Of a stretch of DNA of 64,000 nucleotides, positions 2,488 to 64,000 are shown one piece after another. Source of the DNA: a virus (Duplodnaviria > Caudoviricetes); the IMG/VR virus record IMGVR_UViG_3300021387_000106, positions 45,801-109,800 of that record, one strand, 5' to 3'. Every line of letters begins with the position of its first letter. The stretch's first letter is position 1. The notes beneath the pieces are model-generated. The model made no database searches. It was not told the origin of the DNA and was given only the letters and a program-made list of their open reading frames with translations. Made by a program: the position numbers and the translations under genes.

Positions 2488-2490
2488 AGA

Positions 2491-46776: not shown

Positions 46777-46856
46777 TATATATAAAACAATAATATAAAT
46801 ATTATAATACCCAATTAAGAAATATTACTTCATTTACTTCATTTTGCTTCACAGCA

Positions 46857-46914: not shown

Positions 46915-47381
46915 GAGAGCAAAATTGCTTCAAAAACACCCATATTGCTTCAAAACAACCATCATTTAACAATTAATTAACCCAAAAAACACCTCGTTTT
47001 ACCCCAAAATGACGCATTTTTCACACAATATTTACTACACCATTTCACCAAATGTTAAACAATTAACACTCGAAATGTTAAAATTGAAAATTAAAAAATT
47101 AAAATAAAAAATTTTTGTGGGAAGTCACAAACACCGTTTGGTCGATTTTTGCAGGGGGCTCCCCTCCATATTTTGTAAACATTTTAGATAAAAGGTTATA
47201 TTATATGTATAATGTAACTAACTGAAAATCAATTAGTTAGACGTACTTTTGAAGTGGGGAAAATCGTCTCCTTTGTCCTTTATTTTCGTACTTATTGAAG
47301 ATGATAAAAAACGTTTTTTGCTTTCAGGCTTTTAGTTGCAAATAATGAAGTATCTTTATTGCACATATATTATAATGTACG

Positions 47382-47389
47382 TACATTTG
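47382..47389 (+). promoter_or_regulatory. Bacteroidetes -7 promoter element for the right-arm transcript
   Basis: TACATTTG followed by CAG, 165 bp upstream of the first plus-strand gene. Confidence 0.55.
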
Positions 47390-48634: not shown

Positions 48635-48657
48635 CTTAAAACTCTCTTTCTAAGTTT

Positions 48658-48712
48658 GAGGCTAAGGCTTAACCAGTCTTAGCCTCTTTCTTACTTTCTT
48701 TTTTTTCTTTTC
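48658..48712 (+). terminator. Intrinsic terminator
   Basis: GAGGCTAAGGCT-TAACC-AGTCTTAGCCTC followed by a long T-rich tract. Confidence 0.7.
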
Positions 48713-49296
48713 TGAGTGAGGCACTTGCTTGTAAATAAGTCGAATTATTAAATATGTATGGTTACTAAAAAGGTTAAGGCTGAGGCACTGGCTGAGGCTG
48801 CTGCTTTTATTGTGTTCGATTCACAAAATATTTGCTATTACCTTTTTGTTTGGTTTTTATTTTCTGAGGCTGCTGCTGAGGAAAATAAATTTTAGTTTAC
48901 TTTGAAAATATTTTTTTCTTAGACTACACAAATAAAAAGGCTGCTCTTTGACAAAATGAAACGAAATAAATATTGTTTGGAAAAGTTTTCATTTAGATTT
49001 TATTCTTTTAGATTTTAATTTTCTTAGATTTTATTTCGTGAACACTGCAAGGCTATTACCAGATTTTACTTTTTTATAAAGATTGATCTTGCGAGCTTTG
49101 CAGAATTGATACAAGATATAATTCATAATTGAGTTTTATCAGATGCAGGAGAGTGCAATACGGCACTCTCCTTTGTTGTTTGGATTTTATTTTTTGTTTT
49201 GATTGGTTATTCCTGATTTCAAAATATTTTTTTGAGATTTGGATTTGAGTTCGATTCTCAATCTTAGCGCAATTAATTTTTAAAACTCAAAAGATT

Positions 49297-49521: not shown

Positions 49522-49662
49522 GATGTATAACTTAAAACTTAATTGAATTATGAAAAATCTATGTGAATTTGCCGAAAGTATTTTGGCACGGAACACGATC
49601 GAAACTTTTATTGAGATTATTTGCAGTTTGTCAGATGATGATGTAAAACAGATAATTGCAGG

Positions 49663-49971
49663 ATGAAAGTTTTGGATGATAGAAAGCGGTTAGACTATCA
49701 GCGTAGTTTAGCCGCACAATTTTTCTGCAAGAATTATTCGAGGGAGCAAAGATACCTGATTATTTTGCAGAGAGATTTGGAGAAAGGATTTCAAGCCATT
49801 ACGAGCTTGGGAATTGAGAAAGCGAAGTCTTTCCAGATATTTTATGATTTTCTTTTGGATTTTGAGAATCTGAATGAAAAGATGATTGAGTTTCGTTGGA
49901 GTGAAGATTTTCTGAATGAAAACGGAATTGACTATTCTGAATTGAAGAGATTATATCTCGCTGCGAATTAG
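49663..49971 (+). CDS. Hypothetical protein
   Basis: Coupled to an upstream 38-codon ORF (49550); its stop is the TAG of the hairpin loop. Confidence 0.65.
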   Translation: MKVLDDRKRLDYQRSLAAQFFCKNYSREQRYLIILQRDLEKGFQAITSLGIEKAKSFQIFYDFLLDFENLNEKMIEFRWSEDFLNENGIDYSELKRLYLAAN

Positions 49972-50017
49972 TTTTTGTGGCGAGGACTATTTATTCACTT
50001 TAAAACTCAATGACATT

Positions 50018-50305
50018 ATGAAAAAGAATCTGATTATTGTAGTGGTTACTGTTTTGTCGGTTTTCGCTATTGAGAGTGCGGTTTACTTTGGCTACTGGTG
50101 TAATAATCTCCACAAGAGATATTCTTTGGTGGTAAATCAGAATCGCAAAATGAGAAATGAGATTCGCAATTACGAGGAAATCTTGGATTCTATTGACAAC
50201 GTGCATCATCACGATTATTTGACAACGATTCGAGGTTACAAGGAATTGCGAGGTTACAATGAGATTCGCCCTGTTTATTCTTCTTTGCAGGTTGCTGCGA
50301 AGTAG
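50018..50305 (+). CDS. Hypothetical membrane-anchored protein
   Basis: N-terminal TM segment; follows a hairpin-leader element. Confidence 0.65.
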   Translation: MKKNLIIVVVTVLSVFAIESAVYFGYWCNNLHKRYSLVVNQNRKMRNEIRNYEEILDSIDNVHHHDYLTTIRGYKELRGYNEIRPVYSSLQVAAK

Positions 50306-50375
50306 AGAATGAATTAAAGATTGTAGCGGATTAGTTTCCGCTACGATTTCTATTTTCACTAATACATTATGAATT

Positions 50376-50663
50376 ATGAAAGCAAAGGATTTATTGAATT
50401 GGGTAGTAGATTTTAATCTCAATGGCGAGGATCTATTTTCCGTAGAGATTTCCGAGAGTGACGAATTTGAAAGTCAGAGTGATTTCATTGAGAAATTCTT
50501 TGGCTGTATTCCAGACAAGGAGATTCCGGCAGGAGATTACATTTACATTTGGTCTGACGTTTTGCCCTACGAGTTCTATGACAAGAAACTGGAGCAAAAA
50601 GCGGAGATTGCATTGAAAGCGCATGAGGATTACAAAATCTACCTTTTCCGAATTGAGGATTAA
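50376..50663 (+). CDS. Hypothetical acidic protein
   Basis: Follows a hairpin-leader element. Confidence 0.7.
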   Translation: MKAKDLLNWVVDFNLNGEDLFSVEISESDEFESQSDFIEKFFGCIPDKEIPAGDYIYIWSDVLPYEFYDKKLEQKAEIALKAHEDYKIYLFRIED

Positions 50664-50741
50664 GTACGATTATTCCTATTTGCTTGCAAAGTACGAGAAT
50701 TACTTTGCGAGTACGATTATAAACTCAAAAGTACGTGAATT

Positions 50742-51134
50742 ATGAATGAAAAGGTATTATCAATGGCAAACGATTCCGTTGCCTGGTATCTCAGAAACTT
50801 TAATGTTATTGGGATAGAGTACGAGAATGATTCGAGTTGGTTCTACGCTATTGGAAAGTACGAAAATTCTAATCAAGTGAATGTGTTATCGGTTGCGAAG
50901 AAAGATTCGGGCTGCAAGACTACTGTATTTGGGGATTTCAATTACTTTGCCATTCTCTATGCGTTACACGCTTGCGGATATTCTGCGAAATGGACTGCGA
51001 AAGGTTACGTGATGTGGCCCGTTTGGTATCTCAATCGTTTTGAAATGCAAAATTTCCTGATTGAGTACGACAAGATTATTTCAAAGTACGGATTTGATAG
51101 GCTATCGGTTGAAAGGAATACTTATCTCTCTTGA
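50742..51134 (+). CDS. Hypothetical protein
   Basis: Follows a hairpin-leader element. Confidence 0.7.
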   Translation: MNEKVLSMANDSVAWYLRNFNVIGIEYENDSSWFYAIGKYENSNQVNVLSVAKKDSGCKTTVFGDFNYFAILYALHACGYSAKWTAKGYVMWPVWYLNRFEMQNFLIEYDKIISKYGFDRLSVERNTYLS

Positions 51135-51194
51135 ATTATTCTGCAAGGATTAGTTTCCTTGCGGAGTACGATTTACTTTAATACATTATGAATT

Positions 51195-51419
51195 ATGAGA
51201 AAATTAGTTATCCTGACAATGGGCAGCGTTATTTTGTTGCCGTTCGTGTTCATTATCTGCAATTCTAATTGGATTTGTGGTATTCTTTCTTTGGTTGCTA
51301 TTTTGGCAATTACTATGACTGGAGATAGAAAGGACAGATTATTTTGGGGTTTGTACTGGAAGTATCTGAAATCTATCGTAAAGAAGTTGTTTCCATTACC
51401 AAAAGAGTATAGTTTATGA
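51195..51419 (+). CDS. Hypothetical two-TM protein
   Basis: Follows a hairpin-leader element; coupled to a 43-codon ORF at 51416-51547. Confidence 0.65.
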   Translation: MRKLVILTMGSVILLPFVFIICNSNWICGILSLVAILAITMTGDRKDRLFWGLYWKYLKSIVKKLFPLPKEYSL

Positions 51420-51628
51420 GGCAGCGTATTTGTGTGCAAACTCCCAATGGCGGATTTGCAGAGATCGCCGCTAAATGCGACGGAAAGAAATTGTGGACTG
51501 ATGGAATTAGATTTTGGCGAGGAAAGTTCTTGTGGTTTCCTTGGTAACTTATTGCTCTGAGCTGATTAGTTTCGGCTTGGAGTACGAGAAATTTATCTCA
51601 TATTGTTTAATTTAAAACTCGATTAATT

Positions 51629-52135
51629 ATGAAAAAGATTCAGAAAGAAGTCGTAATCAAGCGTTACGACACAATGTTTGTTGCCAACGATGGCACGGAG
51701 TTCACAACGGAAGAAGAGTGCAAGAAGTACGAAGAAAGTGCAAAGTGTGCTTTGATGGCACGTTACAATTTGCTTGTCATCAAGGAATCAGATTGCTTTT
51801 CCCTCTTTGGTTTTGGCTCTGACGAAGATGTTATCAATGTTGTAAAGGTTGAGTCTAAAGAAGATATAAATCTGATTCTGCAACTTTTGATTATCGAAAA
51901 TCCTTGGCATTACGATGAAAACAAGGCTGAAAATCCCGATGCTGCTGCAAGTAAGAAAGAAAATCTGAGAAAAGTAACTGAACGCCTGACGAAAGCATTG
52001 CAGGAAAAGGATTTGATTTTCATCGGACGTGGTTACGATTCTGATGGATTCTATTTCGAGGGAACTCGCAATGAGCATATCCGTGTGCTGGAGAATATCG
52101 GAAAAGAGAAATCGGAATCTGAAACTGGCGAATAA
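51629..52135 (+). CDS. Hypothetical protein
   Basis: FVANDGTEFTTEEECKKYE motif, common in small phage proteins; follows a hairpin-leader element. Confidence 0.75.
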   Translation: MKKIQKEVVIKRYDTMFVANDGTEFTTEEECKKYEESAKCALMARYNLLVIKESDCFSLFGFGSDEDVINVVKVESKEDINLILQLLIIENPWHYDENKAENPDAAASKKENLRKVTERLTKALQEKDLIFIGRGYDSDGFYFEGTRNEHIRVLENIGKEKSESETGE

Positions 52136-52207
52136 TCTATCTCTATTGTCGGAATGGAATTAGTTTTCTATTCCGATGCTATAAAACTCTAAAAGAAAGG
52201 AAATATT

Positions 52208-52345
52208 ATGAAGACGTTTGAACAGATTGCGTCACAATGTGAGCGCATTGCCAGACTTTACTACAAAGGTTTTGGCACAAAGAAGATGTTAGAAACGGCT
52301 GAGAGATTTTTCTTTTCTCAGCAGAAAGTCGGACTATGTTTTTAA
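52208..52345 (+). CDS. Small hypothetical protein (45 aa, below ORF-track cutoff)
   Basis: ATG follows the hairpin-leader element with loop at 52160. Confidence 0.5.
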   Translation: MKTFEQIASQCERIARLYYKGFGTKKMLETAERFFFSQQKVGLCF

Positions 52346-52356
52346 TCTGAAATATT

Positions 52357-52677: not shown

Positions 52678-52888
52678 ATATGAAACAGATTGTTAAGAAT
52701 TTCCCTACTTTGCGGAAAGCGCAAAATTTCCTGCAAGGTTTGTATTCTCGCTACAATTATGTGAGATTGTCCGATTTTCCTAAATTCTCAGAAAATGGCG
52801 AATATGTTTTCACTGTTGACTGATTCCTTGACTTTGTGCGGATTAGTTTCCGCATGAAGTACGATTGTTTAACTCAAATGGATTAATT

Positions 52889-53068
52889 ATGGCTAAGATG
52901 TCTTTAAACAAACTGGTTGCTGTCAATTCGTACAATGCAAATAGTAATCTGATGTACGAATTGGAACGCAAGGGAGAAAAAGATAGTGTGCAATATCTTT
53001 GCTTGAAGAATGAGAATGAGCGTTTAGAAAAGCGTTATCCGAGTTTGCGCACAAATCTCTATTGCTGA
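52889..53068 (+). CDS. Hypothetical protein
   Basis: Start reassigned to the ATTATG after the hairpin. Confidence 0.6.
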   Translation: MAKMSLNKLVAVNSYNANSNLMYELERKGEKDSVQYLCLKNENERLEKRYPSLRTNLYC

Positions 53069-53127
53069 TTATATTTCCCTCTGATTAGATTCTGAGGGAA
53101 GTACAATTTAATTAAACTCAAACGATT

Positions 53128-53616
53128 ATGAATACAAACGATTTATGGAAGATTTTCACTACTGACAAAAGTATTGTGATTCTGACTGATGTGCCGAGAA
53201 ATTACCACAATGGCGACGGAGTTTATATCCTGATGAAACAATTGCAGGAGATATACGGAAGTAACCTTTGCAGTACACAAAAGTTTGATGAAAGATTCGA
53301 TAAGATTGAAGATTTCAATATCATTCTCAAAACTGGTTATAATCTCGACGGAAACAGATTGATTTGTGCGCATTTGTTCGATTTCGACCCTAAAACGAAT
53401 TTGCTTTTGGTAGATAATACCAAGAGTTTGCGGATGAAAGAAGATAACGAGTTTGTGTATCGTATTCAGAAAACGCAAATAAAATGTATTGATGGTTGGA
53501 ACGGATTGCGAAAGCACATTCTTTGGACTATGGGTAGAGATACCTGTTGGACTTTTTGGGGAGATGCACAATTTGGCGAACAAAAGATTATCTCACTTGA
53601 AAGAAAGTGCGCTTGA
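53128..53616 (+). CDS. Hypothetical protein
   Basis: Follows a hairpin-leader element. Confidence 0.7.
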   Translation: MNTNDLWKIFTTDKSIVILTDVPRNYHNGDGVYILMKQLQEIYGSNLCSTQKFDERFDKIEDFNIILKTGYNLDGNRLICAHLFDFDPKTNLLLVDNTKSLRMKEDNEFVYRIQKTQIKCIDGWNGLRKHILWTMGRDTCWTFWGDAQFGEQKIISLERKCA

Positions 53617-53677
53617 TTACTTTGGTGCAATTAGTTTTGCACCTAAGTACAATTTACTCACTTAAACATTATGAATT

Positions 53678-53950
53678 ATGATGTACGATTTCACTTTATT
53701 CTTTGAAGATTGCAATTCTAACTTTGCAGATTTCGATGAATTTGCAGAGAAGTGCGAGAACTTAGATTCAGTTTGTGATGTTGATTATGACAACGAGGAC
53801 GTTACTTTCTATGACTTTGCGTTTGGTTGTGACTATCGTCAAGGTTTCTGCGAAAAATCTCTCAATGCTGACAAGGATTTCAAGGATATGGCAAAACACC
53901 AGATCAAAGTTCAGAGCGAGTTTCGTTCTGCAATGGGAATGTGGTTTTAA
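53678..53950 (+). CDS. Hypothetical highly acidic protein
   Basis: Follows a hairpin-leader element; D/F-rich; followed by a 57-codon ORF at 53963-54136. Confidence 0.65.
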   Translation: MMYDFTLFFEDCNSNFADFDEFAEKCENLDSVCDVDYDNEDVTFYDFAFGCDYRQGFCEKSLNADKDFKDMAKHQIKVQSEFRSAMGMWF

Positions 53951-54187
53951 ATCTCAGAGAATATGAACGGAAAGAATTTCATTGTGGTGTATCAAGGAAT
54001 GTATTACACCAAACCGATGTGGGGACCGACATTTAGCCCTCACAAGAAAGATGCAACTCTTTTTACTGAAAAGCAGGCGAAAGAAGTTTGTCGTGATTTA
54101 CATGATTTCAAAGGAATCAGTTATCAAGCAGCGTGAGCGATTTGGGCATTAGTTTGCCCGAATCGTACCAATTAAAAACTCAATATT

Positions 54188-54379
54188 ATGGTTACAAAGA
54201 GTTACACCTACAAAGGTTATGAGATTCAGCGAAAAAGAGTAGTTGAATTGAAAAATGGACATTGGGAGCCAACAAAGCAATACGAGATTTATTCTTGTGG
54301 CTACATGATTCCCTGCATCGTTGATACGTTGAAAGAGGCGAAAGCTGAAATCAACCGAAGAATAGAATTATATTCATAA
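54188..54379 (+). CDS. Hypothetical protein
   Basis: Follows a hairpin-leader element; TLKEAKAEI motif. Confidence 0.65.
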   Translation: MVTKSYTYKGYEIQRKRVVELKNGHWEPTKQYEIYSCGYMIPCIVDTLKEAKAEINRRIELYS

Positions 54380-54455
54380 TTCGATAATGTATTTCCGGGT
54401 GCGCTCTATGAGAATAGTGCGTGCCTACTATTTATTAACTAAAACTCAGTGAATT

Positions 54456-54968
54456 ATGGAAAAATTAGCAGATTACGGAATCAGAATCATTAATCATGGC
54501 GAATGGAGTGACCCAGAAGTTCAATGGAAGAAATCAAGGTTTCAGACTTTGCTTTTCAACTATTGGGATTGTGTGGATTGTTTCGAGAATGACGATTACG
54601 ATTTTGACAACGAAGAAGATTGCGAATTGTTCTATCAGAATCTATTCGAGCTTACTCCAAGTGAGTATGATTATCCGCAAGTTTCTTACGAGTGGACTGT
54701 ATGGACTGATTCTGGCGACGGATTCTACGACGAAACTCTCTTTGATGATGCAGATTACTATAAAGTATATAAGCTATCTCCAAAGAAAGATTTCGTTTTG
54801 CACACGGCAGGGCAGGCATTAAAGCAGGCTTTGAGTTATGTTTTCGATTGCGGAATGAAGAATGTGGAAATTTCCGTTTTCCGTAGGGATGACAGACAGC
54901 GTGAGCGTGTTGCTCATTACATCATGCAGGGTTCTACTTTGCGAAATCAGATGAATTACACAAAGTGA
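54456..54968 (+). CDS. Hypothetical acidic protein
   Basis: Follows a hairpin-leader element. Confidence 0.7.
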   Translation: MEKLADYGIRIINHGEWSDPEVQWKKSRFQTLLFNYWDCVDCFENDDYDFDNEEDCELFYQNLFELTPSEYDYPQVSYEWTVWTDSGDGFYDETLFDDADYYKVYKLSPKKDFVLHTAGQALKQALSYVFDCGMKNVEISVFRRDDRQRERVAHYIMQGSTLRNQMNYTK

Positions 54969-55021
54969 GAGGGATTAGTTTCCCTTTCGCTTACTATTGT
55001 TTCACTAAAACTTTATGAATT

Positions 55022-55402
55022 ATGAGTAAATTACCTACGACTGGCAGAGAATTGCCAAGTCTTTACGTTACGATTATCCGTTCTTTCAGATGGACGCATT
55101 TCAATGGTACTGGAGAGGATAAATTTCCTGCAAAGAGCGTATTCTTTGAGATAATGAAGAAATATCGCTGCAAGAAACCTCAAACCGTTGCAAAGCACAT
55201 TCTAAAAGGCTACAAACCTTCCGCACATGAAAGAAAGTATTGCGCAAAGATTCTTACGGCTACACAATTCCTGAAAACGTTGCAGTTCATGCGCTACAAT
55301 GGCTATATGGAACGTGAACTTGCAAACATGATGATTCTTCCGCTTTCAGAATGGATTGTTTCGAGGACGAAAGAATATGATGAAGCGAAATGGTGTCTTT
55401 AA
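55022..55402 (+). CDS. Hypothetical basic protein
   Basis: Follows a hairpin-leader element. Confidence 0.7.
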   Translation: MSKLPTTGRELPSLYVTIIRSFRWTHFNGTGEDKFPAKSVFFEIMKKYRCKKPQTVAKHILKGYKPSAHERKYCAKILTATQFLKTLQFMRYNGYMERELANMMILPLSEWIVSRTKEYDEAKWCL

Positions 55403-55460
55403 ACTTTCGGGAGATTAGTTTCTCCCTGAGGTTCTACGTTTAACTTAACTCAATTTGATT

Positions 55461-55835
55461 ATGGAACATTTAACCGTTTATGTTTATCGTGACAAAACTA
55501 TTGGAGATTGCACTGCACATGGTGTTACGTCACGTCACGATAGAATTACGTTGCTTTGGGATTGTACTAAGACAGAAGCAATCAAGTATTGTGTTGATAA
55601 AGGAATCGACGTTGATGCTGCATTATGGCTGAATCCGAGAGTCCTTTGGAATGAATATTTGCCATTTGCAGAGCCATTGATTAAGCCAGCAGGTTCAGCA
55701 GGCCCAATGTTTGGTGGCAATTATATTTGCACAAGTGATTCTCGCTTTCCTTGTGTATGCGGAAAGTACGGCAAATATCCTATTCCCGTACATGACCGAT
55801 TTGAAACGCAGGAGTATTGCAACTCTATGGACTAA
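55461..55835 (+). CDS. Hypothetical phage protein
   Basis: GPMFGGNY..TSDSRF...PIPVHDRFE; start reassigned to the ATTATG. Confidence 0.7.
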   Translation: MEHLTVYVYRDKTIGDCTAHGVTSRHDRITLLWDCTKTEAIKYCVDKGIDVDAALWLNPRVLWNEYLPFAEPLIKPAGSAGPMFGGNYICTSDSRFPCVCGKYGKYPIPVHDRFETQEYCNSMD

Positions 55836-55893
55836 AACTTTCGGGCTATTAGTTTAGCCCAGAAGTTCAATGTTTCACTTAAAACTCAGAATT

Positions 55894-56130
55894 ATGTATT
55901 TAGAAACGACTTGTTGTGGGTGTGGAATCGAAAGATGGAACGCTCTAATGAAAGGAGCAAGAAAATGCTCTTACAAAAGACTGGTTGCACGTATAAAGAA
56001 AGAATTACCTGACTTGTACGAATCACTTGCATTGAATTTCTATAATCCTTGGGATGAACAATGCCAACAAACAAAGACGCATTTCATATTAGTACATTCG
56101 GGAATTGAGTATTTTATCCGCAAAAGTTGA
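55894..56130 (+). CDS. Hypothetical protein
   Basis: Start reassigned to the ATTATG after the hairpin. Confidence 0.65.
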   Translation: MYLETTCCGCGIERWNALMKGARKCSYKRLVARIKKELPDLYESLALNFYNPWDEQCQQTKTHFILVHSGIEYFIRKS

Positions 56131-56184
56131 GGGAGATTAGTTTCTCCCTCAACTACTATTGTTTCACTTAAAACTCATTGAATT

Positions 56185-57102
56185 ATGGAGAATTTTGAAG
56201 ATTTCAAGAAACGTAATGTTGGTTTCGATGAAGGCCGTTGGTATGGCTTGGACGAGTATTTTGACAAGACTATGCGTAAATGCTACGATGTGGCTCTGAA
56301 AGTAGAACAAACCTACAATGAATTGCATCCAAACATTAACGAGCCTCAGATTCTCGACATTGTGGAATTTGCAGACGATTTCGAGGTTTACAAGCGTGGA
56401 ATGATTTGCGAGAATCTTTATGGTAAAAGCGAGTTCGGTATGCTTTGTATTTGTGAACATGGTTGCTCTCACACAGATGGGAAATATTTCTCTACTGGTG
56501 GTGGTGCTTTCCGTCATATCCACAAATCTAAGTTGCGCTACGCTGGCGAAACTGAGAATGTAGTTTGGACTTGGGGTTGTTATGGTTCGGGCGCACATCA
56601 ATGTATATATTTCCCTCTGAAAGTTCGCAAATGGATTATTCCTTACGAGCAGCCAAAATTCGGCAGCAAAGTGTATATCAAGGGAAAGAACGCTAAAGAT
56701 ATGTACGGACGTGATTTAGATGCGGTTTGGATTGAGAATTTCGGTTCTTATTTCGGTCACGCTAAATCGTTCAATTCTATCAAGGCTTTCAAGGCATGGG
56801 CTGAATATGTTGGCTACAATAGTTATGCGTTTGACGGAACTTTTGAGCGTAGAAGTCAGCAGAAGATTCAACATCGTTGCATCGTTAAGATGGAAGATTT
56901 GCCAGAAAATGCAAAACCGATGAAAGTTATCGCTAATGGCAGAGTTCACGACGGATGGGTAGTAAACGACGGAATAACCATTACTGAGCTTTGGCTGAAC
57001 GCTTATGACCCTAACGAGGTACGACCTAAGTACGGCACAAAAGAATGGGATGATGAAATACAATTGTTCCACAAGTATTGTCGCAATCCTATGGGTGTTT
57101 AA
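56185..57102 (+). CDS. Hypothetical protein, possibly DUF4121-like
   Basis: STGGGAF...LRYAG...WTWGCYGSG...IYF pattern. The family assignment is from memory only. Confidence 0.6.
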   Translation: MENFEDFKKRNVGFDEGRWYGLDEYFDKTMRKCYDVALKVEQTYNELHPNINEPQILDIVEFADDFEVYKRGMICENLYGKSEFGMLCICEHGCSHTDGKYFSTGGGAFRHIHKSKLRYAGETENVVWTWGCYGSGAHQCIYFPLKVRKWIIPYEQPKFGSKVYIKGKNAKDMYGRDLDAVWIENFGSYFGHAKSFNSIKAFKAWAEYVGYNSYAFDGTFERRSQQKIQHRCIVKMEDLPENAKPMKVIANGRVHDGWVVNDGITITELWLNAYDPNEVRPKYGTKEWDDEIQLFHKYCRNPMGV

Positions 57103-57164
57103 CTCTCTTTGCTTTGCAGGGATTGATTTCTCTGCAAGGTACAATAATTCTAAAACTTTCAATT

Positions 57165-57710
57165 ATGAGACAAGAAGTGTATGATTTGAGGAAATTGGGC
57201 GATAATGCCTATAAGTTCCTGAATGAATGTAACGGACATACTGGAGTATTGTTCGAGAAGAATGTAGAATCTCACATTAACGAAATGTGGCGGTTGTGGC
57301 ACTCTCTTGATGGCACTTGGGATGAATCTTATCGTTACACAAAAGATTATCTTACGAAGATGTGCGAGGATATGCGTAAAAAGAAAATCCGCACAAAAGG
57401 TAAGTGTTTCCCTTTAAAGTCGGGTAATTCTATCTGCAATCAAATGAATCGTATTGTTGTGCTTGCAGGTGGTTATTCCTATGGCAATCCTAATGTTCAT
57501 CTGAAAAGAGCAATCAGTATCGTAGAGCATTACGGAAAGAATATTGCAGCAACAAAGGAATGGAAAGATGCCTATAAAGCTGGATATGATTGGGTAACAT
57601 CTGACATTACAAAGGTAGGATTTAGTTCCGTTGAATCAGAAGCCGTTACATCGGGCTATGCAAAGGCTTACGCTGTAAAGTTTCCCCGTGAGGTCTATGC
57701 AGCACATTAA
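57165..57710 (+). CDS. Hypothetical protein
   Basis: Start reassigned to the ATTATG after the hairpin. Confidence 0.7.
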   Translation: MRQEVYDLRKLGDNAYKFLNECNGHTGVLFEKNVESHINEMWRLWHSLDGTWDESYRYTKDYLTKMCEDMRKKKIRTKGKCFPLKSGNSICNQMNRIVVLAGGYSYGNPNVHLKRAISIVEHYGKNIAATKEWKDAYKAGYDWVTSDITKVGFSSVESEAVTSGYAKAYAVKFPREVYAAH

Positions 57711-57769
57711 CAACTTTGCAGGGATTAGTTTCCCTGCATTGTTCTAATTTAACTTAAACTCAAAGAATT

Positions 57770-58003
57770 ATGGAAGTAAAGAATTTATTCGTGAATTTCG
57801 AGAATGGCGAGAATTGCTTGGTTTACACCTACGATTTGTCTGAGGATGAAGTAAAGCAGTGGTGCGAGAAAGCAACCGACAACAAGGTAATTGAAGTATA
57901 TCATGTTCCTCAAAACGATTTGCAATACTACTGCATCGACGGAAGAGTTTGGGCAGATACGCCAGAACAAGTAGCCAAAGTCAGAAAGTATTTGGCAAAC
58001 TAA
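57770..58003 (+). CDS. Hypothetical protein
   Basis: Follows a hairpin-leader element. Confidence 0.65.
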   Translation: MEVKNLFVNFENGENCLVYTYDLSEDEVKQWCEKATDNKVIEVYHVPQNDLQYYCIDGRVWADTPEQVAKVRKYLAN

Positions 58004-58059
58004 ATGCTTAGAGGGATTAGATTCCCTCTGAGCTTCAATAAACTTTAAAACTTACAATT

Positions 58060-58467
58060 ATGGAGAAAACAAATTTATGGCCCAGACCATTAGACGAAAA
58101 GAATCTAACAACGGACTGGATTGAAGAAATGTTTGAAAGTGGCGGTTGGATGCCTACACCTTACTGCAAGAATGGTACATATCAGTATCTCACTTACATT
58201 GGCGAAACACTGGTTAAAGTTTCGTGGAAATTTGGCGAGAATCAGCTATCATTTATCGTACTTGTAGATATTGAGGGTTGTGATAAATATCTCAGTGAAA
58301 AGGCAAAGACAGCCATTGATAAGATTATTTCTATGATTGAGAATTGGGAGAAAGAAGTCAATGAGTACGCATCTGAGAGTTGTGAGGATATGCTTACTAT
58401 CCGCTACAATGAGGAAAAGAATCGTATTGATTTATTCTTCTACTGGTTGCCAAGCGAATCTCGCTAA
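58060..58467 (+). CDS. Hypothetical acidic protein
   Basis: Follows a hairpin-leader element. Confidence 0.7.
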   Translation: MEKTNLWPRPLDEKNLTTDWIEEMFESGGWMPTPYCKNGTYQYLTYIGETLVKVSWKFGENQLSFIVLVDIEGCDKYLSEKAKTAIDKIISMIENWEKEVNEYASESCEDMLTIRYNEEKNRIDLFFYWLPSESR

Positions 58468-58525
58468 TCGCTTGCACTCTCTTAATTGAGGGTGCGAGTA
58501 CAATTACATTTAAACTCAAAGAATT

Positions 58526-58666
58526 ATGGATGAATACAGAAAAGAACAAATCGAGGCTTTGGAAAAAGCTATTGAGTATTGTGAGAAAGGCGGTTGTACT
58601 GACGTTATACCTCGTATCAACCTGAGAATACACTGGTTAAAAGAAAATTGCAATTTCTACGATTAA
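58526..58666 (+). CDS. Small hypothetical protein (46 aa, below ORF-track cutoff)
   Basis: ATG follows the hairpin-leader element with loop at 58482. Confidence 0.55.
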   Translation: MDEYRKEQIEALEKAIEYCEKGGCTDVIPRINLRIHWLKENCNFYD

Positions 58667-58678
58667 AATGCTGATTCT

Positions 58679-58894
58679 ATGACTATCGGTTACTTTTACA
58701 AAGAGTATGTGATAAACGGAACAAAGTATTTCGTTTCTCAGTATGCAGATAAACCACATTTCGTAAAGCTATGGGAATATGGCTACGTTTATGAGAACTA
58801 TCGTATTGGCAATATGGTTTATCCTACAATGTGCGTCTCTATCAGTCGTGGGCTACGCTCACGTCCGAATCTCAAAAGACTATTCGGTGGTTAG
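58679..58894 (+). CDS. Hypothetical protein
   Basis: Its stop is the TAG of the hairpin loop at 58891. Confidence 0.6.
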   Translation: MTIGYFYKEYVINGTKYFVSQYADKPHFVKLWEYGYVYENYRIGNMVYPTMCVSISRGLRSRPNLKRLFGG

Positions 58895-58931
58895 TTCCAC
58901 TGGATAGCACATTAACTTAAACTCAGTAATT

Positions 58932-59198
58932 ATGAAGAAATTTAAATTCTACAAATGCCTATCAAGTCATGGTGTTTTCTTGGTAGCAAGAGATTGGGCG
59001 AATAACATTCTTGCAGAGTATTATCCACTCTACAAGGAGTTTCATCTAATCGACAAAAGCTATCCTGAACTGGAGCGTTATATGCGCTCTTACCATTTCG
59101 ACCATCAATTCGACGAGATTCCGAGATTCCGTCAGATGAACGAGTTCTTACTAAACAAAAGGAGAAATAACTATGCACTACAAGGATTACGACATTAA
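58932..59198 (+). CDS. Hypothetical protein
   Basis: Follows a hairpin-leader element. Confidence 0.6.
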   Translation: MKKFKFYKCLSSHGVFLVARDWANNILAEYYPLYKEFHLIDKSYPELERYMRSYHFDHQFDEIPRFRQMNEFLLNKRRNNYALQGLRH

Positions 59199-59523
59199 CA
59201 TTCGCATCAACATCAAGAGTTGGTTGTTAGGTGCTTACTCTCTTAGGAAGTTGCAGGAGTTTACCTATCTCGCAAGCGAGTTTGGTATGCACCCAAAGAC
59301 AAAGAATTGCTTTGAATACGGAAAGGCAGCATGATTAAGATTAGCGGACAGAGGATTAATCAAGAATATCTCAAACAAGATTTCTATCCTCACGAAATGG
59401 CAAATGGCACTATCATTATGGTTTCCTACGATGGTCGCTATTATTATTGATTTGTTCTTTTACCTACAAAGCTATCCTGATTAGGTTCGGGATTGCTTAC
59501 CATTAACTTTAACTCAATGAATT

Positions 59524-59841
59524 ATGTTACGGAAAGAACTTGTTGCAAAATTGGAATCTTTGGTACATAACAGATATTCCAAAGAGAGTTTAACCAAGAG
59601 GATTAATGAAATCTTTGGTGTAAATGACATCGAAATTGACTGGCATTGCTTTGAGGAAGAGCCATTCCTTACTGATTTTAATGCTATGTTCACTACCTAC
59701 GACAACGAAAAGGTTGCAAAGAATCTACGTGGAGATTTCGACATCTACTATTTAGAGTGCAAACAACCCAATCACATGAGCATGGAAGTTTACGTTACTG
59801 AGGTCGGCTACGAATTTAAGTACCGCCATTTCGATAAGTAA
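59524..59841 (+). CDS. Hypothetical protein
   Basis: Follows a hairpin-leader element. Confidence 0.7.
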   Translation: MLRKELVAKLESLVHNRYSKESLTKRINEIFGVNDIEIDWHCFEEEPFLTDFNAMFTTYDNEKVAKNLRGDFDIYYLECKQPNHMSMEVYVTEVGYEFKYRHFDK

Positions 59842-59916
59842 CATTACCTCTCTAATCTTACCCTTATCAGTTTAAGGGTGGGATTCCAATATTTATTAAC
59901 TTAAACTCAATAGATT

Positions 59917-60105
59917 ATGAACGAAAAATTAATGTGGCTTTTGGAGATTCACTTTAATCTCTTTCACTCTGATTTAATCAGCAGAGCATTTCACGATGAC
60001 AATGTATCTCTCGAAGATTTCATTTCCGGCTGCGAGAAAATAGGACTTGCAGAGAATGAAGATGAAGATTGCGAGTTTGTACCTGATGAATTTAAAAACG
60101 TGTAA
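59917..60105 (+). CDS. Hypothetical acidic protein
   Basis: Follows a hairpin-leader element. Confidence 0.6.
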   Translation: MNEKLMWLLEIHFNLFHSDLISRAFHDDNVSLEDFISGCEKIGLAENEDEDCEFVPDEFKNV

Positions 60106-60108
60106 GCT

Positions 60109-60606
60109 ATGAATAAGGAAGAAATTATCAAGCAGGCTAAAGAAGAGTTCAAAGATTTCTGTGCCGTTTTCTTGGGTAAGTCACTCGACGAAGTAGATAA
60201 TATCGTTCAGAGAAACGAAAGATTCTGTTTCGGAAGTGCAGATCCAAACACTGAGGAAGATATGCGTGATATTAATTACAAGCATATTCTTGCTACCGTT
60301 TGCCGAATTAACGGCAAAATGCGAATCTCAGAAAATGTGGAGTATTATCCTGATGATAGTTCAGAGTGTATTCGACTTGAATTGCCAGTGCTTGCAAAGC
60401 GTACTATAAAGATTGAAGTAGAAATCGAGTACGAGTATAACGTAAATCATCGTGCTTTGGTTGGTATGGATGAATCTTACATCGACGCTTGCGCAAAGGA
60501 CTTAGCCATTCAGCCTAATGGTAACTCTATCGTGGATGGTGTGAAACTGATTCACGTCTGCAATCGTGAAGAAAATGCCTGGTGGCTTATCAATAACGAT
60601 AAGTAA
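60109..60606 (+). CDS. Hypothetical protein
   Basis: Starts 3 bp after the upstream stop. Confidence 0.7.
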   Translation: MNKEEIIKQAKEEFKDFCAVFLGKSLDEVDNIVQRNERFCFGSADPNTEEDMRDINYKHILATVCRINGKMRISENVEYYPDDSSECIRLELPVLAKRTIKIEVEIEYEYNVNHRALVGMDESYIDACAKDLAIQPNGNSIVDGVKLIHVCNREENAWWLINNDK

Positions 60607-60661
60607 CTACTGGAGAGCGTGATTAGTTTCACGCTTTCTTGCTAATATAAACTCAATAATT

Positions 60662-60952
60662 ATGGAAACAAAAGAATGGTACATCAAGCATGGTTATACG
60701 AGTGAAGAGTATGCTAACCTCATGCGCTTTCACTCAGACCATAAGCGACGCATGGAAAAGCGACGTGCAATAACGAGAATCTGCAATCAGTTAGGACTAC
60801 AATTCCTTTCGTGTGATAGGAGTGTGAACGCTGATAGCTTAGAGAGTATCAAGGCTGCAATATCGGTGCTTAGAAGTAAGAAAATAGAGCCAGTAAAGGT
60901 ATTAGTATCTACGTGTGGTAGTTATCAGTATTCCGCTTTCTATGATTTCTGA
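60662..60952 (+). CDS. Hypothetical protein
   Basis: Follows a hairpin-leader element. Confidence 0.65.
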   Translation: METKEWYIKHGYTSEEYANLMRFHSDHKRRMEKRRAITRICNQLGLQFLSCDRSVNADSLESIKAAISVLRSKKIEPVKVLVSTCGSYQYSAFYDF

Positions 60953-61005
60953 GGGTGCAATCAGTTTTGCACTCCCAGACTATGTTTCACTAAACGTTAT
61001 GAATT

Positions 61006-61251
61006 ATGGCAAAGGTTACTGTTATTTATCTTAGTGTGAATCCAAGTTTCTATGACGTGCATAAATTAGCGAAGTTATCCTTTGACGAGGCAAAGAAGTT
61101 CATTGAGGATGACACTATCGGAGCTTGCTCTCACAAAGTAGTTGAACTGGATATGACGAAGTTTGCAGACTACAATTATTGTGCTGATGGTGCTGACTTA
61201 GGCGACTGGACTGATTCACTCTTAATGTGGATTCGGGTTAGTGGAGATTAG
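61006..61251 (+). CDS. Hypothetical protein
   Basis: Follows a hairpin-leader element; its stop is the TAG of the next loop. Confidence 0.65.
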   Translation: MAKVTVIYLSVNPSFYDVHKLAKLSFDEAKKFIEDDTIGACSHKVVELDMTKFADYNYCADGADLGDWTDSLLMWIRVSGD

Positions 61252-61291
61252 TTTCTCCACCTTCCCCATAAATACTTAAACTCAAACGATT

Positions 61292-61546
61292 ATGAAAACA
61301 AAGTACGAAAACGGATTACTCACATTTACTGAGGATTCTAAGAACGAAAAGATTTTTAGTGTCAATGGTACGAAGTATGGCGACGGAGATAGATTTGTTC
61401 GCCTGATGACTGAAAATGAGTTGAAGGAAGAAATTCCTGACGATTCCGATTGGAGTATGCCATTCGACAAAATGGAAGTAGGAGATACATCTACCTATGG
61501 CTACTGGTTCTACGACAAAGCAAACGTTATTGTTCGTGTTGCCTGA
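61292..61546 (+). CDS. Hypothetical protein
   Basis: Follows a hairpin-leader element. Confidence 0.65.
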   Translation: MKTKYENGLLTFTEDSKNEKIFSVNGTKYGDGDRFVRLMTENELKEEIPDDSDWSMPFDKMEVGDTSTYGYWFYDKANVIVRVA

Positions 61547-61608
61547 CTACTGAGGAAAAGCGGATTAGTTTCCGCTTTCCTGCAATTATTAACTTAAACT
61601 CAATGATT

Positions 61609-61992
61609 ATGGATAAAGATTATTCTCACATGGCAGGTAAGCACATCGTTATTGATGGTGTGAATTACTTTAGTAATGAGTATTTCGGCGACGGACTTTC
61701 AAACGGCTACGTTTACAAGAATGAGCAAGCCTTTTGCGAGAATCCTGATGAAGTATGTTACATACCAGAAGCCGCTTTCTCTGATGCTACGCCAGTAACT
61801 ATCGACGGAGTGGATTACTACTCACAAGAGGAAGTTGGCGGTTACTCTCGAAACGACCTAAAGGATTTAGTGACAGACGAAGAAGGAAACTATTTCGAGG
61901 ATTCAGAAGGAACTCTTATCGACGAAGAGATTCTTTTCTACTCTATCTTTTGGTGTTGCCCTGAAACAAGGTTGAACGAAATATACGATTGA
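61609..61992 (+). CDS. Hypothetical highly acidic protein
   Basis: Start reassigned to the ATTATG; internal IDGVxY repeat. Confidence 0.7.
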   Translation: MDKDYSHMAGKHIVIDGVNYFSNEYFGDGLSNGYVYKNEQAFCENPDEVCYIPEAAFSDATPVTIDGVDYYSQEEVGGYSRNDLKDLVTDEEGNYFEDSEGTLIDEEILFYSIFWCCPETRLNEIYD

Positions 61993-61994
61993 CT

Positions 61995-62249
61995 ATGAAA
62001 AGAGAAAAAGTAAAAGAATTGCTTACTGAGCTTATCGAGAGAGATTTCACTATCGAAGAGATTTCAAACCTCATGGGCGACGTGAAAAATTATCTCGACG
62101 AAAAGAGAGAATCTGAGCGTAAAGAGGAAGATGAAGAATATCGGAAAATTCATGCTACAAGTATTCCTCTCTATCGTAAATGGTTGCAAGAAACTCTTGA
62201 TTCGTATGGACTTGACTACACTATTGAAGATTTTGAAGAAGAGTTCTGA
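61995..62249 (+). CDS. Hypothetical acidic protein
   Basis: Directly follows the upstream stop. Confidence 0.65.
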   Translation: MKREKVKELLTELIERDFTIEEISNLMGDVKNYLDEKRESERKEEDEEYRKIHATSIPLYRKWLQETLDSYGLDYTIEDFEEEF

Positions 62250-62312
62250 CTATCGGTTAAGCAGATTAGATTCTGCTTAATCACTATTATTTACCTTTAA
62301 AAGTTGTGAATT

Positions 62313-62615
62313 ATGGAACAGAATCAAATTTGCGTATTGTTTTGGGTAAAGTTTACTTTCAACTACCCCGACATCAAAGAAGTAATCAAGTGGATTTGTG
62401 AGAAAACCGACAAAAACTGGCTCTACGACCATCTTTTGAACAAATTCTATCACTTGTACGACACATTCGGCAGTCATGCAGTTATGGGAATGTTCTACTG
62501 CGAAATCGACAAGGATTTGCGCGACGCTCTCACGGAATACGCTCTGACTGTTTGGGCTCCCGTTGGTATGTGCCATACATACGAGGAAGTTAAAGGCCTG
62601 CTTGGAATCAAGTAA
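62313..62615 (+). CDS. Hypothetical protein
   Basis: Follows a hairpin-leader element. Confidence 0.7.
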   Translation: MEQNQICVLFWVKFTFNYPDIKEVIKWICEKTDKNWLYDHLLNKFYHLYDTFGSHAVMGMFYCEIDKDLRDALTEYALTVWAPVGMCHTYEEVKGLLGIK

Positions 62616-62682
62616 AGCAATCTCCAGTTCCTTTAGGTAGGACTGGAGAACGAATTTAGTATTAACTTAAACTCATTGAATT

Positions 62683-63132
62683 ATGAAATTTATCACAACT
62701 TTAACAGACATCACTCACGATGACTTAGTAAATCTGCTTTGTACTGCAACGTATGGTAGTAATTACTTTATGTGTGCTATCAAGAAAGCTGACTATTATG
62801 GTACTGAACTTGAAAATCCTGATGATTGCCGAGAAGATAAATGGGCGAAAGTCCTGCTATCGGGCAAGCCTATCATTGTCAGAGATTACTATGCAGAAGA
62901 TGACAAAGATTTCTACGGAAACTTGCCGCATGATTACGATTGGAACAAGGAATGTATGAACTACACCGTCACGCTCGACGACATCAAGAAAGGACTTGAA
63001 AGAATTTTCCGTGAAGGTGGTTGGGGTGCATCTTACGTTATGGACTTGGTAGAGGATAACGGAGGGTTTGACTTGGACGAAGCGGAATCTGTATTGCAGC
63101 GTATCATTTTCGGTCAAGAAATCTACGGCTAA
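62683..63132 (+). CDS. Hypothetical acidic protein
   Basis: Follows a hairpin-leader element; C-terminal D...AESVLQ..IFGQEIYG. Confidence 0.7.
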   Translation: MKFITTLTDITHDDLVNLLCTATYGSNYFMCAIKKADYYGTELENPDDCREDKWAKVLLSGKPIIVRDYYAEDDKDFYGNLPHDYDWNKECMNYTVTLDDIKKGLERIFREGGWGASYVMDLVEDNGGFDLDEAESVLQRIIFGQEIYG

Positions 63133-63189
63133 CAACTGAGGGAGATTAGTTTCTCCCTTGGTTACTATACTCACTTAAACTTATGAATT

Positions 63190-63408
63190 ATGAGAAGAAT
63201 TGATTTAATCAAATGTAAGGTTGCAAGATTGGAAGTGCTTACTGGCATTGACTTTCAAGTGCTTGGTTGTAATGGAGAGTATAGTGTAACTACTAAAAGT
63301 GGAGTTCCTATTACGGCTTTTAACTACATGGGCTACTATCGTAAATCCAAAGACTTAGAAATCTATCTCGACGGAGTGATTGCAGGACTTGAATTTAATC
63401 AGAAGTAG
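63190..63408 (+). CDS. Hypothetical protein
   Basis: Follows a hairpin-leader element. Confidence 0.65.
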   Translation: MRRIDLIKCKVARLEVLTGIDFQVLGCNGEYSVTTKSGVPITAFNYMGYYRKSKDLEIYLDGVIAGLEFNQK

Positions 63409-63410
63409 TT

Positions 63411-63638
63411 ATGTATATCGTTAAGACTAACTATCCAATGGCTATGCACGATGTTGCAGAGTTCAAAAGAAAACGTGACGCAATGCGACGCTTTGCGAGA
63501 TTCCAAAGGTTCTTTGATAAGAATCGTAATCCCTACAAGTTATTCATACGAAATGACGGAAAGAAGCCATTGAGAGGCAGAATCCAAGTGGAGTATGGCG
63601 GTTTTTACTATTACGTTGAACTTTATAAGAAGGACTGA
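63411..63638 (+). CDS. Hypothetical basic protein
   Basis: Tightly spaced in the operon. Confidence 0.6.
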   Translation: MYIVKTNYPMAMHDVAEFKRKRDAMRRFARFQRFFDKNRNPYKLFIRNDGKKPLRGRIQVEYGGFYYYVELYKKD

Positions 63639-63640
63639 CT

Positions 63641-63862
63641 ATGATGTTAGACAGAGAACAATTGTCATGTGACCACGAAATCGCATTGACTAACCTAATT
63701 GAACTCGTCAGAGATTTGGGTCTTTTCGAGGAAGATGAAAGCGATGACACGTCGCTAATCACAACTGGAAAGACTCTCAATCTCGAAACGTTTTCAAAGA
63801 ATGACTGGCTATTATGCCTTGATGCTATTGGGGAGAAGGAAAATCCCTTCACAAAGGGTTGA
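63641..63862 (+). CDS. Hypothetical acidic protein
   Basis: Tightly spaced; its stop lies in the left arm of the next hairpin. Confidence 0.6.
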   Translation: MMLDREQLSCDHEIALTNLIELVRDLGLFEEDESDDTSLITTGKTLNLETFSKNDWLLCLDAIGEKENPFTKG

Positions 63863-63915
63863 GGTGGTTAATTCCACCTCTGCCTACTATTGTTTAACTC
63901 AAAACTCTATGAATT

Positions 63916-64000
63916 ATGGCAAACTTAGATTTAATCCAGAAGCGTTTCAATGAAACAAGAAAGATTTTCGGACACAGCGACGAGATTACAACAGCCTCAG
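63916..64000 (+). CDS. Hypothetical protein (truncated by window edge)
   Basis: ATG follows the hairpin-leader element with loop at 63868. Confidence 0.55.
   Translation, partial: MANLDLIQKRFNETRKIFGHSDEITTAS

Follow-up and report, generated by a model that had tools for sequence, protein, structure and literature searches.

Fixed-length hairpins joined to a TAC-N-AT word recur at the gene boundaries of a 22-kb array in a phage with a probable Bacteroidota host

A single unit of ~60 nucleotides (nt), in which a hairpin of constant length is joined to a conserved word at its foot, recurs at the gene boundaries of a ~22-kb array whose genes are small and mostly unknown (55 open reading frames, ORFs) in the virus record IMGVR_UViG_3300021387_000106 (Duplodnaviria; Caudoviricetes). 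The record has 109,800 bases, and the stretch analyzed here, called the window, comprises 64,000 nt (positions 45801-109800 of the record); coordinates refer to the window unless they are given as genome positions. The first 107 bases of the record are identical to its last 107 bases, a terminal redundancy that indicates a complete genome of 109,693 bp. By analogy with the promoter-early stem-loop (PeSL) cassettes of other phages, we tentatively interpret the unit as a cistron-boundary module whose foot word may be part of a weak non-canonical promoter, an account that we regard as plausible but short of probable.

The first-pass annotation of the window had reported that an [AT]C[AGT]AT motif follows TTAGTT loops at a fixed spacing. 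We anchored a sequence logo on the 26 hairpins with the hexaloop TTAGTT or a one-mismatch variant of it (window 49968-63868), counting positions after the loop, and the spacing was borne out. The motif begins at +13 in 14 of the 26 units and at +12 in one (binomial P ~7e-21 for +13), whereas in 5000 shuffles of the same linkers the best-offset count averaged 1.7 with a maximum of 5. Conserved columns are T+12 (20/26), A/T+13 (23/26), C+14 (24/26), A+16 (22/26) and T+17 (19/26); C+14, with 1.93 bits and P ~2e-17, is the highest column and exceeds every position of the loop itself. The full foot word reads (R)AG-TAC-N-AT and is followed by a T-rich linker of variable length. The annotation's remark that a few copies are shifted by 1 nt holds for the loops at 61565 and 62266, and the foot at loop 61248 is degenerate.

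The stem is longer than had been assumed: rather than being short and imperfect, it spans a full 12 bp with G-T pairs allowed, and 13 bp where A+13 pairs, so that the motif is placed exactly at the 3' foot of the helix. The hairpin thus consists either of a 12-bp stem with a 6-nt loop or of 13 bp with a 4-nt loop. Across 24 aligned units, pairing in the 12-bp helix reaches 94%, with compensatory (both-side) changes at all 12 pairs; sliding the 3' partner by 1-3 columns lowered the pairing to 39-54%, and RNAalifold independently predicted the identical helix. The non-Watson-Crick positions comprise 42 G.T (G.U) against 6 A.C combinations, and the skew stays strong when compared with the ~57:43 that the strand composition would give. 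Likewise, the mean folding energy is -16.2 kcal/mol for the sense strand and -11.5 kcal/mol for the antisense strand, 4.7 kcal/mol in favor of the former. The excess of G.U over A.C and the better folding of the sense strand indicate that the helix is selected in that strand, most simply in the transcript. The minus strand has two additional TTAGTT hairpins (genome 23015 and 27236); the genes around them are likewise encoded on that strand, and it is there that their G.U pairs are found, which argues for RNA rather than for one replication strand. Several units within the phage share identical hairpin cores of 16-18 nt, which points to copying or gene conversion between units.

Units of the same kind are present in two relatives, namely the complete 104.7-kb phage IMGVR_UViG_3300028886_000066 (G001, ~25 units) and a 21-kb fragment (L017, 8 units). 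Their loops vary (TTAGTT, TCAGTT, TTAATT and TGGAAT, as well as the tetraloops GAGA, GAAA and TAAA), and less than half of them resemble TTAGTT, while the stems have 12-13 bp and the foot reads AAGTACGA(A/T)AATTA. The stem is 12 bp long with hexaloops, 13 bp with tetraloops and 12 bp with heptaloops, and across the three phages the distance from the T of TAC to the hairpin dyad is 15 nt in all classes (15.5 with the heptaloop). The "ruler" is therefore the constant length of the hairpin, with the foot T always 15 nt from the dyad; because this distance is kept while the relatives' loops vary, the loop word is not the anchor. In one matched pair, the unit at loop 57725 and its counterpart in G001, the stems are identical but the loops and foot words differ, with loop TGGAAT and foot TACGAA in G001. 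G001 has homologues (35-82% identity) of only about 12 of the 55 array ORFs; their order is the same in both phages and the ORFs between them are unrelated, the pattern of a plastic region where genes are swapped at conserved boundaries. A search of phage records for further relatives gave no match, and among those viral contigs with the word-plus-leader pattern to which a covariance model of the unit was applied, true units were confined to G001 and L017. The same model had no match in two contigs, L129 and L130, that encode a ParB-like protein of 44-48% identity, or in the 11 Bacteroidota-type bacterial contigs scanned for a host (from 120 pattern matches); Rfam 15 gave no family match for window 46800-64000 at E<=1.

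The covariance model, built from 24 units and run over the genome with a cut-off of E<0.01, detected 33 units, 33/33 on the + strand, from genome 95030 across the genome end to 5977. The interval of 52843-63890 to which the pattern had been assigned is real but partial, since the array starts near window 49297 and continues past the end of the window into genome positions 1-5977. Each unit is arranged as upstream stop codon, hairpin, foot word, T-rich linker, leader box and ATG, and this order recurs ahead of nearly all non-overlapping start codons in the array. Relative to the stem, the upstream stop codon is found between -16 and +18 nt, and three ORFs end at the TAG of the loop. The translation leader, TTAAAACTCA-N4-6-ATTATG, is of the Bacteroidota type; its box can be written [C/A]ACTTAAAACTCA, followed by 4-6 nt and ATTATG. 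The hairpin-to-foot spacing is fixed, the box-to-ATG spacing is nearly so, and the foot-to-AAACTCA-box distance ranges over 10-32 nt. Since only this last distance varies, we consider the unit to be composed of two modules, the hairpin with its foot and the leader. Within the array, no unit is present where gene junctions are short or overlapping, so that the units bound groups of 1-4 genes, and the convergent end of the array (genome 5937) has a hairpin without a foot word or leader. About 9 of the 26 units satisfy a simple terminator rule (5 T in 8 nt), whereas the others fail it, as do most in the relatives; judged from these tails, partial termination is likely at some units and unlikely at the A-rich tails of the relatives.

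Two further observations concern the leaders. Many of them end in a doubled start, TTATGAATTATG (window 50366-50378, 51185-51197, 53668-53680 and ~6 more units); in the single case read by frame (50369/50376), a short overlapping ORF begins at the first ATG, which does not share the reading frame of the gene. The minus strand of genome 4484-4536 has a near-perfect array leader, CACTTAACTTAAACTCGAATTATG, downstream of the reverse-complemented hairpin of genome 4518; the ATG of this leader opens fewer than 20 codons. This copy may be a vestigial inverted cassette.

Cassette units, promoters and terminators of the array region (window coordinates)
Feature	Position	Strand	Details
Canonical Bacteroidota-type promoter, TTG-N20-TACATTTG	47359..47389	+	Precedes first + strand gene (47555-48634); outside array
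Canonical intrinsic terminator, 12-bp stem and long T run	48658..48696	+	After first + strand gene; example of the ordinary terminator form in this phage
Second canonical terminator	49147..49185	+	Just ahead of array
Relaxed host-type promoter, TTG-N19-TATTTTTT	49203..49232	+	Array head; could drive a long polycistronic transcript
Cassette unit	49956..50020	+	Loop TTAGTT 49968, 12-bp stem, foot ACTAT, leader, ATG; upstream ORF stops at loop TAG
Cassette unit	50319..50378	+	Loop 50331, foot TCTAT
Four tandem AGTACG(A/T) foot words	50660..50744	+	Stretch ends at ATG of 130-amino-acid (aa) ORF
Cassette unit	51138..51197	+	Loop 51150, foot TACGAT
Cassette unit, long linker	51554..51631	+	Loop 51566, foot TACGAG
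Cassette unit	52148..52210	+	Loop 52160, foot GCTAT
Cassette unit	52831..52891	+	Loop 52843, foot TACGAT
Cassette unit	53073..53130	+	Loop TTAGAT 53085, foot TACAAT
Cassette unit	53619..53680	+	Loop 53631, foot TACAAT
Cassette unit	54137..54190	+	Loop 54149, foot TACCAA
Cassette unit	54397..54458	+	13-bp stem and GAGA tetraloop, foot TACTAT; foot-to-dyad distance as in hexaloop units
Cassette unit	54963..55024	+	Loop 54975, foot TACTAT
Cassette unit	55403..55463	+	Loop 55415, foot TTCTAC
Cassette unit	55837..55896	+	Loop 55849, foot TTCAAT
Cassette unit, best covariance-model match	56125..56187	+	Loop 56137, perfect 12-bp stem, foot TACTAT
Cassette unit	57110..57167	+	Loop TTGATT 57123, foot TACAAT
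Cassette unit, degenerate foot TTCTAA	57713..57772	+	Loop 57725
Cassette unit	58005..58062	+	Loop TTAGAT 58017, foot TTCAAT
Cassette unit	58470..58528	+	Loop TTAATT 58482, foot TACAAT
Cassette unit	58879..58934	+	Loop 58891, foot CACAT; upstream ORF stops at loop TAG
Cassette unit	59469..59526	+	Loop TTAGGT 59481, foot TACCAT
Cassette unit	59855..59919	+	Loop TCAGTT 59867, foot TTCCAA
Cassette unit	60611..60664	+	Loop 60623, foot TGCTAA
Cassette unit	60949..61008	+	Loop TCAGTT 60961, foot GACTAT
Cassette unit, short stem and degenerate foot	61236..61294	+	Loop 61248; upstream ORF stops at loop TAG
Cassette unit, foot shifted 1 nt (GCAAT)	61553..61611	+	Loop 61565
Cassette unit, foot shifted 1 nt (CACTAT)	62254..62315	+	Loop TTAGAT 62266
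Cassette unit, different hairpin, no TAC foot, standard leader	62619..62685	+	
Cassette unit	63134..63192	+	Loop 63146, foot TACTAT
Cassette unit	63856..63918	+	Loop TTAATT 63868, foot TACTAT; precedes 574-aa ParB-like gene crossing contig end

As a PeSL-type cassette, the unit would work at two levels. In the mRNA of the preceding gene, the hairpin would serve as attenuator and would protect the 3' end. At the DNA level, the foot word TAC-N-AT would form the -10-like center of a promoter, weak and non-canonical, from which the host polymerase, perhaps aided by a phage factor, would transcribe the following unit. The start site is predicted ~7 nt past the foot word, in many units on the A of TTTCAC, so that the leader would measure ~20 nt, and the repeated cassettes would provide recombination points for gene swapping between related phages. 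Consistent with such a promoter, T+12, A+13, A+16 and T+17 match TAnnAT; roughly every second unit has CAC or AAC at +23 to +25, and hence a purine 7 nt past the hexamer; and the phage's own canonical -7 boxes, TACATTTG and TACTTTTG, start with TAC. The predicted leader also counts for a promoter because its length is close to the 23-nt mode of the 5' untranslated regions of Bacteroides thetaiotaomicron (PMC7366714). The TAAAA just upstream of the ATG matches the ribosome-binding motif proposed for Flavobacterium (PMC2483708). If the ~9 hairpins that satisfy the terminator rule do terminate, then transcription must restart downstream of them.

Several results weigh against a promoter at the foot. 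The word differs from the host consensus, position 5 being A against T in TAnnTTTG; A at the second position, expected to be the most critical, is present in 15/26 units (58%), the C at the third position (92%) is unexplained, and in half of the relatives' units the hexamer ends in A instead of T. No -33 TTG was found at a usable distance, the best candidate being TTG-N23; the CTTTG of the 5' stem base, tried as the -33 element, lies 23 nt from TAC, compared with the 18-21 nt searched and the 20 nt at 47359. The full TTG-N18-21-TAnnTTTG occurs once in the region (47359) and in a relaxed copy at 49203, and not inside the array, in agreement with the annotation's remark that the host TAnnTTTG is not the recurring pattern. 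With promoters at the array head and none inside, one long transcript is possible; the relaxed promoter at 49203 comes directly after two ordinary long-T-run terminators. Nothing requires a promoter to adjoin the hairpin with single-nucleotide precision, as the word does in three phages. The same points favor a signal at the RNA level, either cleavage or 3'-end formation at a measured helix foot. Also against a promoter, a TTAGTT hairpin with a UAC foot is found behind each of two minus-strand genes without an array leader (genome 23015 and 27236).

The serious rival to the PeSL-type cassette is hairpin-guided RNA processing, which we regard as possible but doubtful. One or several long array RNAs from the head promoters would be cut in the single-stranded, A/U-rich foot UAC-N-AUU by a host or phage endoribonuclease that recognizes the hairpin, so that the upstream mRNA keeps a protective 3' hairpin and the downstream one receives a uniform leader, in parallel to RNase III on the T7 early transcript and to RNase E sites beside T4 mRNA stem-loops. 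The ruler-type nuclease suggested by the annotation survives here as hairpin-guided cleavage at the foot, but not as recognition of the loop, because the loops vary in the relatives. Selection of the helix in RNA, as seen in the G.U bias, and the restriction of canonical promoters to the array head agree with processing, and an apex-to-foot distance that is fixed in three phages for any loop type fits structure-guided recognition. The relatives' post-stem tails, ACGAAAAUUA and ACGAUAAUUA, are insufficiently U-rich for intrinsic termination and contain R-A-U-U-W, reportedly an old RNase E consensus that goes back to Ehretsmann et al. in 1992; in addition, the first gene has a foot-like word and leader ~130 nt past its canonical promoter, which would place them inside a transcript. 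However, the analysis yielded no nuclease candidate, the helix of 12-13 bp is shorter than the classical substrates of bacterial RNase III, and we know of no nuclease specificity that accounts for U-A-C, the most conserved bases. In the relatives, AAGT sits in the paired stem and yet is conserved in sequence, which suggests a read-out in DNA or in melted RNA. A 22-kb transcript would also have to pass 33 hairpins, about one-third of them with T-rich tails, and no stretch complementary to the word or leader, as expected for the arms of a trans-acting antisense RNA or ribozyme, occurs elsewhere in the genome. In a more specific and unlikely version, a ruler endonuclease would dock on the fixed-length helix (apex to foot 15 nt), perhaps reading it as a mimic of the 12-bp tRNA acceptor/T-arm stack with an A73-C74-like tail, and cut a single long early transcript at U-A-C to release ~33 hairpin-capped messages that all share the same leader. 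Two other RNA structures were rejected: a pseudoknot between the UUAGUU loop and AACU(U)AA of the leader, since the commonest form of the leader contains one U too many and changes in the loop are not matched by changes in the leader (judged by eye), and a hammerhead helix III, for which the GAA needed 5' of the hairpin is not conserved. A tRNA-like role of the hairpin, as a mimic of the acceptor/T-arm minihelix at which host enzymes such as RNase P or RNase Z would punctuate the transcript as tRNAs do in mitochondria, is very unlikely. The acceptor and T-arm of a tRNA form a 12-bp stack followed by the discriminator A73 and C74-(C75)-A76, with a T-loop of TTCRANY. The 12-bp helix and the commonest bases after it (A at +13, C+14 and A+16) recall this arrangement, ACCA is found in two units (54149 and 59481), and the phage encodes a tRNA-Ser without an encoded CCA. 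Against it, C occupies +15 in 3/26 units only, the loop is not a T-loop, the stem opens with an A-U instead of a G-C pair, and position -1 lacks a conserved U.

The remaining alternatives place the signal in DNA. The bipartite promoter proposed by the annotation, in which 11 bp separate a TTAGTT box at about -27 from TAC-N-AT at -10, read either by the host polymerase under redirection by a phage activator or by a phage sigma factor or polymerase, appears improbable, although its -10-like half remains plausible. Both words are highly conserved and lie 11 nt apart in 24/26 units; in T4 middle promoters the MotA box is centered at -30, 11-13 bp from the -10 element, and the spacing here is similar. 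The TTAGTT upstream box did not hold up in the relatives, where less than half of the loops resemble it even though geometry, foot word and leader are kept, and covariation and G.U bias in the stem are not expected of a double-stranded DNA spacer. TTAGTT hairpins are also located at the ends of other transcription units. The non-host sigma factor or polymerase that the annotation had invoked was not detected: the complete genome contains no RNA polymerase family, no large frame with the two-barrel catalytic motif or DxDGD and no sigma70 region 2 (Sigma70_r2), the sole region 4-like match (14.7 bits) being a weak helix-turn-helix in a small ORF. We also find it quite improbable that the foot words are operator-like sites, AAGTACGA, at which a phage regulator would bind at gene boundaries and silence the array, as in the L5 stoperator model. 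AGTACRA is ~8-fold enriched on the + strand of the array (22 copies, ~3 expected), the word occurs in tandem at 50660-50744 (where a 13-bp hairpin includes the second copy in its 5' arm and loop and has the third at its foot) and in G001, three GTACG-containing words are present in the divergent control region 47240-47390, one of them immediately before the canonical -7 box, and the gene content of the phage includes integrases and ParB/FtsK-like proteins. In contrast, no regulator could be assigned, the exact fusion of the word to an RNA-selected hairpin is left unexplained, and outside the array the word is placed at random in coding sequence. Least likely of all, and highly so, are hairpin sites that act in DNA, either as N4-type promoters for an injected polymerase or as single-strand recombination sites similar to integron attC. 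In favor, small-ORF cassettes in the same orientation are bounded by hairpins, and a 283-aa tyrosine recombinase stands at the array end, with a homologue of 42% identity at the equivalent place in G001. Nevertheless, no virion polymerase was found, and the hairpin folds on the sense and not the template strand (42 G.T to 6 A.C), which excludes an N4-type template-strand hairpin; that reading is largely refuted. The strand of the hairpin tracks gene orientation in other modules too. The integron reading was rejected, as the two tyrosine recombinases score 27 (the 283-aa protein) and 34 bits against the 265-bit cut-off for integron integrases (TIGR02249), and attC sites are at least 57 bp long with R''/R' core words, whereas the present hairpin has 30 nt and a base of ACTTT...AAAGT then AC, with no R''/R' core words.

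Two further observations concern the region ahead of the array. Between the primase operon and the first + strand gene (window 47215-47390), an inverted repeat TAACTAA-N11-TTAGTTA combines the loop word and its complement, and one of the three GTACG-containing words, GTACGTAC, adjoins the -7 box of the canonical promoter on the upstream side, with an overlap of 3 bases at the start of the box. The inverted repeat and the GTACG words may be operators or chance occurrences. The first + strand gene (359 aa) consists largely of GCTGAGG/GCTAAGG repeats and is Ala/Glu/Lys-rich; the repeats are also present in its leader and in the next 45-codon ORF (window 47555-48895), and its product has no family match in Pfam, PHROGs or NCBIfam.

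The genome encodes the siphophage functions large terminase, portal, major head protein and a 3286-aa tape measure, together with a D5-type primase, a DnaB-like helicase, a SNF2/methylase fusion, two tyrosine recombinases, ParB-like and FtsK-like proteins and a Rha-family regulator. The tape measure (window 20248-30108, minus strand) would imply an unusually long tail; its residues 1-1380 are A/K/E/L-rich and have no domain-family match. This protein was examined as a tape-measure-fused RNA polymerase in the style of Thermus phage P23-45, and the idea was discarded, as it contains tape-measure domains only, has a coiled-coil composition, and shows no DxDGD motif and no match to a solved structure. 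The sole tRNA is the tRNA-Ser (GCT) at genome 27827-27912 on the minus strand, and a TTAGTT hairpin is located ~600 nt downstream of it on the same strand. Phage proteins contain the domains DUF3874, Arm-DNA-bind_5 and Phage_int_SAM_5 and a weak DUF4121 match, all of which we take to be typical of Bacteroidota elements, and full copies of the Bacteroidota consensus TTG-N18-21-TAnnTTTG stand at operon heads, for example at 47359. Based on this domain content and promoter consensus, the host is probably a member of the Bacteroidota. Among the 10 larger array ORFs compared with Pfam, two had matches, both sub-threshold (DUF4121 and LPD11). Weak matches to DUF4121, LPD11 and ddrB-ParB in array genes (window 56185-57710 and genome 23-1747), families found in conjugative elements and polyvalent proteins, hint at entry-phase or anti-defense functions in the array. 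CTAG is absent from the whole 109.7-kb genome (~196 expected from trinucleotide frequencies), and GATC (observed-to-expected ratio 0.13), GGCC (0.17), CCGG (0.28), CGCG (0.35) and AGCT (0.47) are strongly avoided genome-wide, which looks like avoidance of restriction sites. GTAC was considered as a restriction-related word and dismissed, being neither avoided nor enriched genome-wide (ratio 0.93).

To our knowledge, little is known about the expression of early genes, probably those for host takeover and anti-defense, in Bacteroidota phages. Here a single ~60-nt unit organizes a 22-kb array and is conserved in at least three phages, while most of the intervening genes have been exchanged. Should the foot word be a promoter, it would represent a non-canonical promoter class for the Bacteroidota polymerase and a compact, portable expression cassette for bacteria of this group that are hard to engineer; should it be a cleavage site, it would reveal a structure-measuring RNase activity in Bacteroidota. 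Under either reading, the cassettes would mark the insertion points of new phage genes and aid in reading metagenomic phage genomes. What sets this system apart is that an RNA hairpin of fixed length is coupled, exact to the nucleotide, to a word unlike that of the host, with a geometry kept in three phages despite different loops, in a Bacteroidota setting. The surprise is moderate, because T4-type phages already provide examples of the general design, in which a hairpin and expression signals separate small early genes.

Four known systems invite comparison. The stoperators of mycobacteriophage L5 and other cluster A phages are ~30 asymmetric words that occupy small gaps between genes and all face the same way with respect to transcription, and the present words share number, placement and single orientation; however, the L5 sites are genome-wide, carry no hairpin and have a known repressor, whereas the words described here are fused to hairpins and lie within the array. 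Intrinsic terminators likewise have a G+C-rich stem right after a stop codon, then a T-rich stretch. In the present units, the first four post-stem bases are A/T-C-N-A and not T, and neither the length of the stem nor the loop varies freely; the two ordinary terminators of this phage (48658 and 49147) differ from them in appearance and have long T runs. The early RNase III hairpins of T7 and T3 (e.g. R1.1) resemble the units in standing between cistrons of an early gene block and acting in RNA. Cleavage by RNase III leaves a 3' hairpin on the upstream T7 message, at about five sites that comprise about two helical turns with an internal loop and have no conserved single-stranded foot word. The present helix is shorter, with 12-13 bp and a foot word, and its cleavage is hypothetical.

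By analogy, the closest known kind is the PeSL cassette of the T4-type phages RB49/phi1, PST and nt-1 (Arbiol et al. 2010, PMC2839356; Comeau et al. 2014, PMC4122927). In PeSLs, the promoter matches the host sigma70 consensus; the present units have only the -10-like TAC-N-AT, which departs from TAnnTTTG at a conserved position, and no host primary-sigma promoter was found in them. The position of the stem-loop varies among PeSLs (five subclasses), whereas here hairpin length and word junction are fixed to the nucleotide in three phages. The carriers differ as well, T4-type phages in one case and a siphophage of Bacteroidota host type in the other, with an A-rich leader in place of a Shine-Dalgarno sequence, and the promoter, terminator and mini-circle activities of PeSLs were shown experimentally, while the present units are known from sequence. 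The likeness concerns both structure and context. In both systems, a stable stem-loop with G-T pairs (here a 12-bp helix with a mean of about -16 kcal/mol) stands upstream of or overlaps the -10 region, or the -10-like word in our case, and in both the units flank small genes of unknown function, orphans in a plastic region, with relatives that differ by cassette-wise gene replacement at the units.

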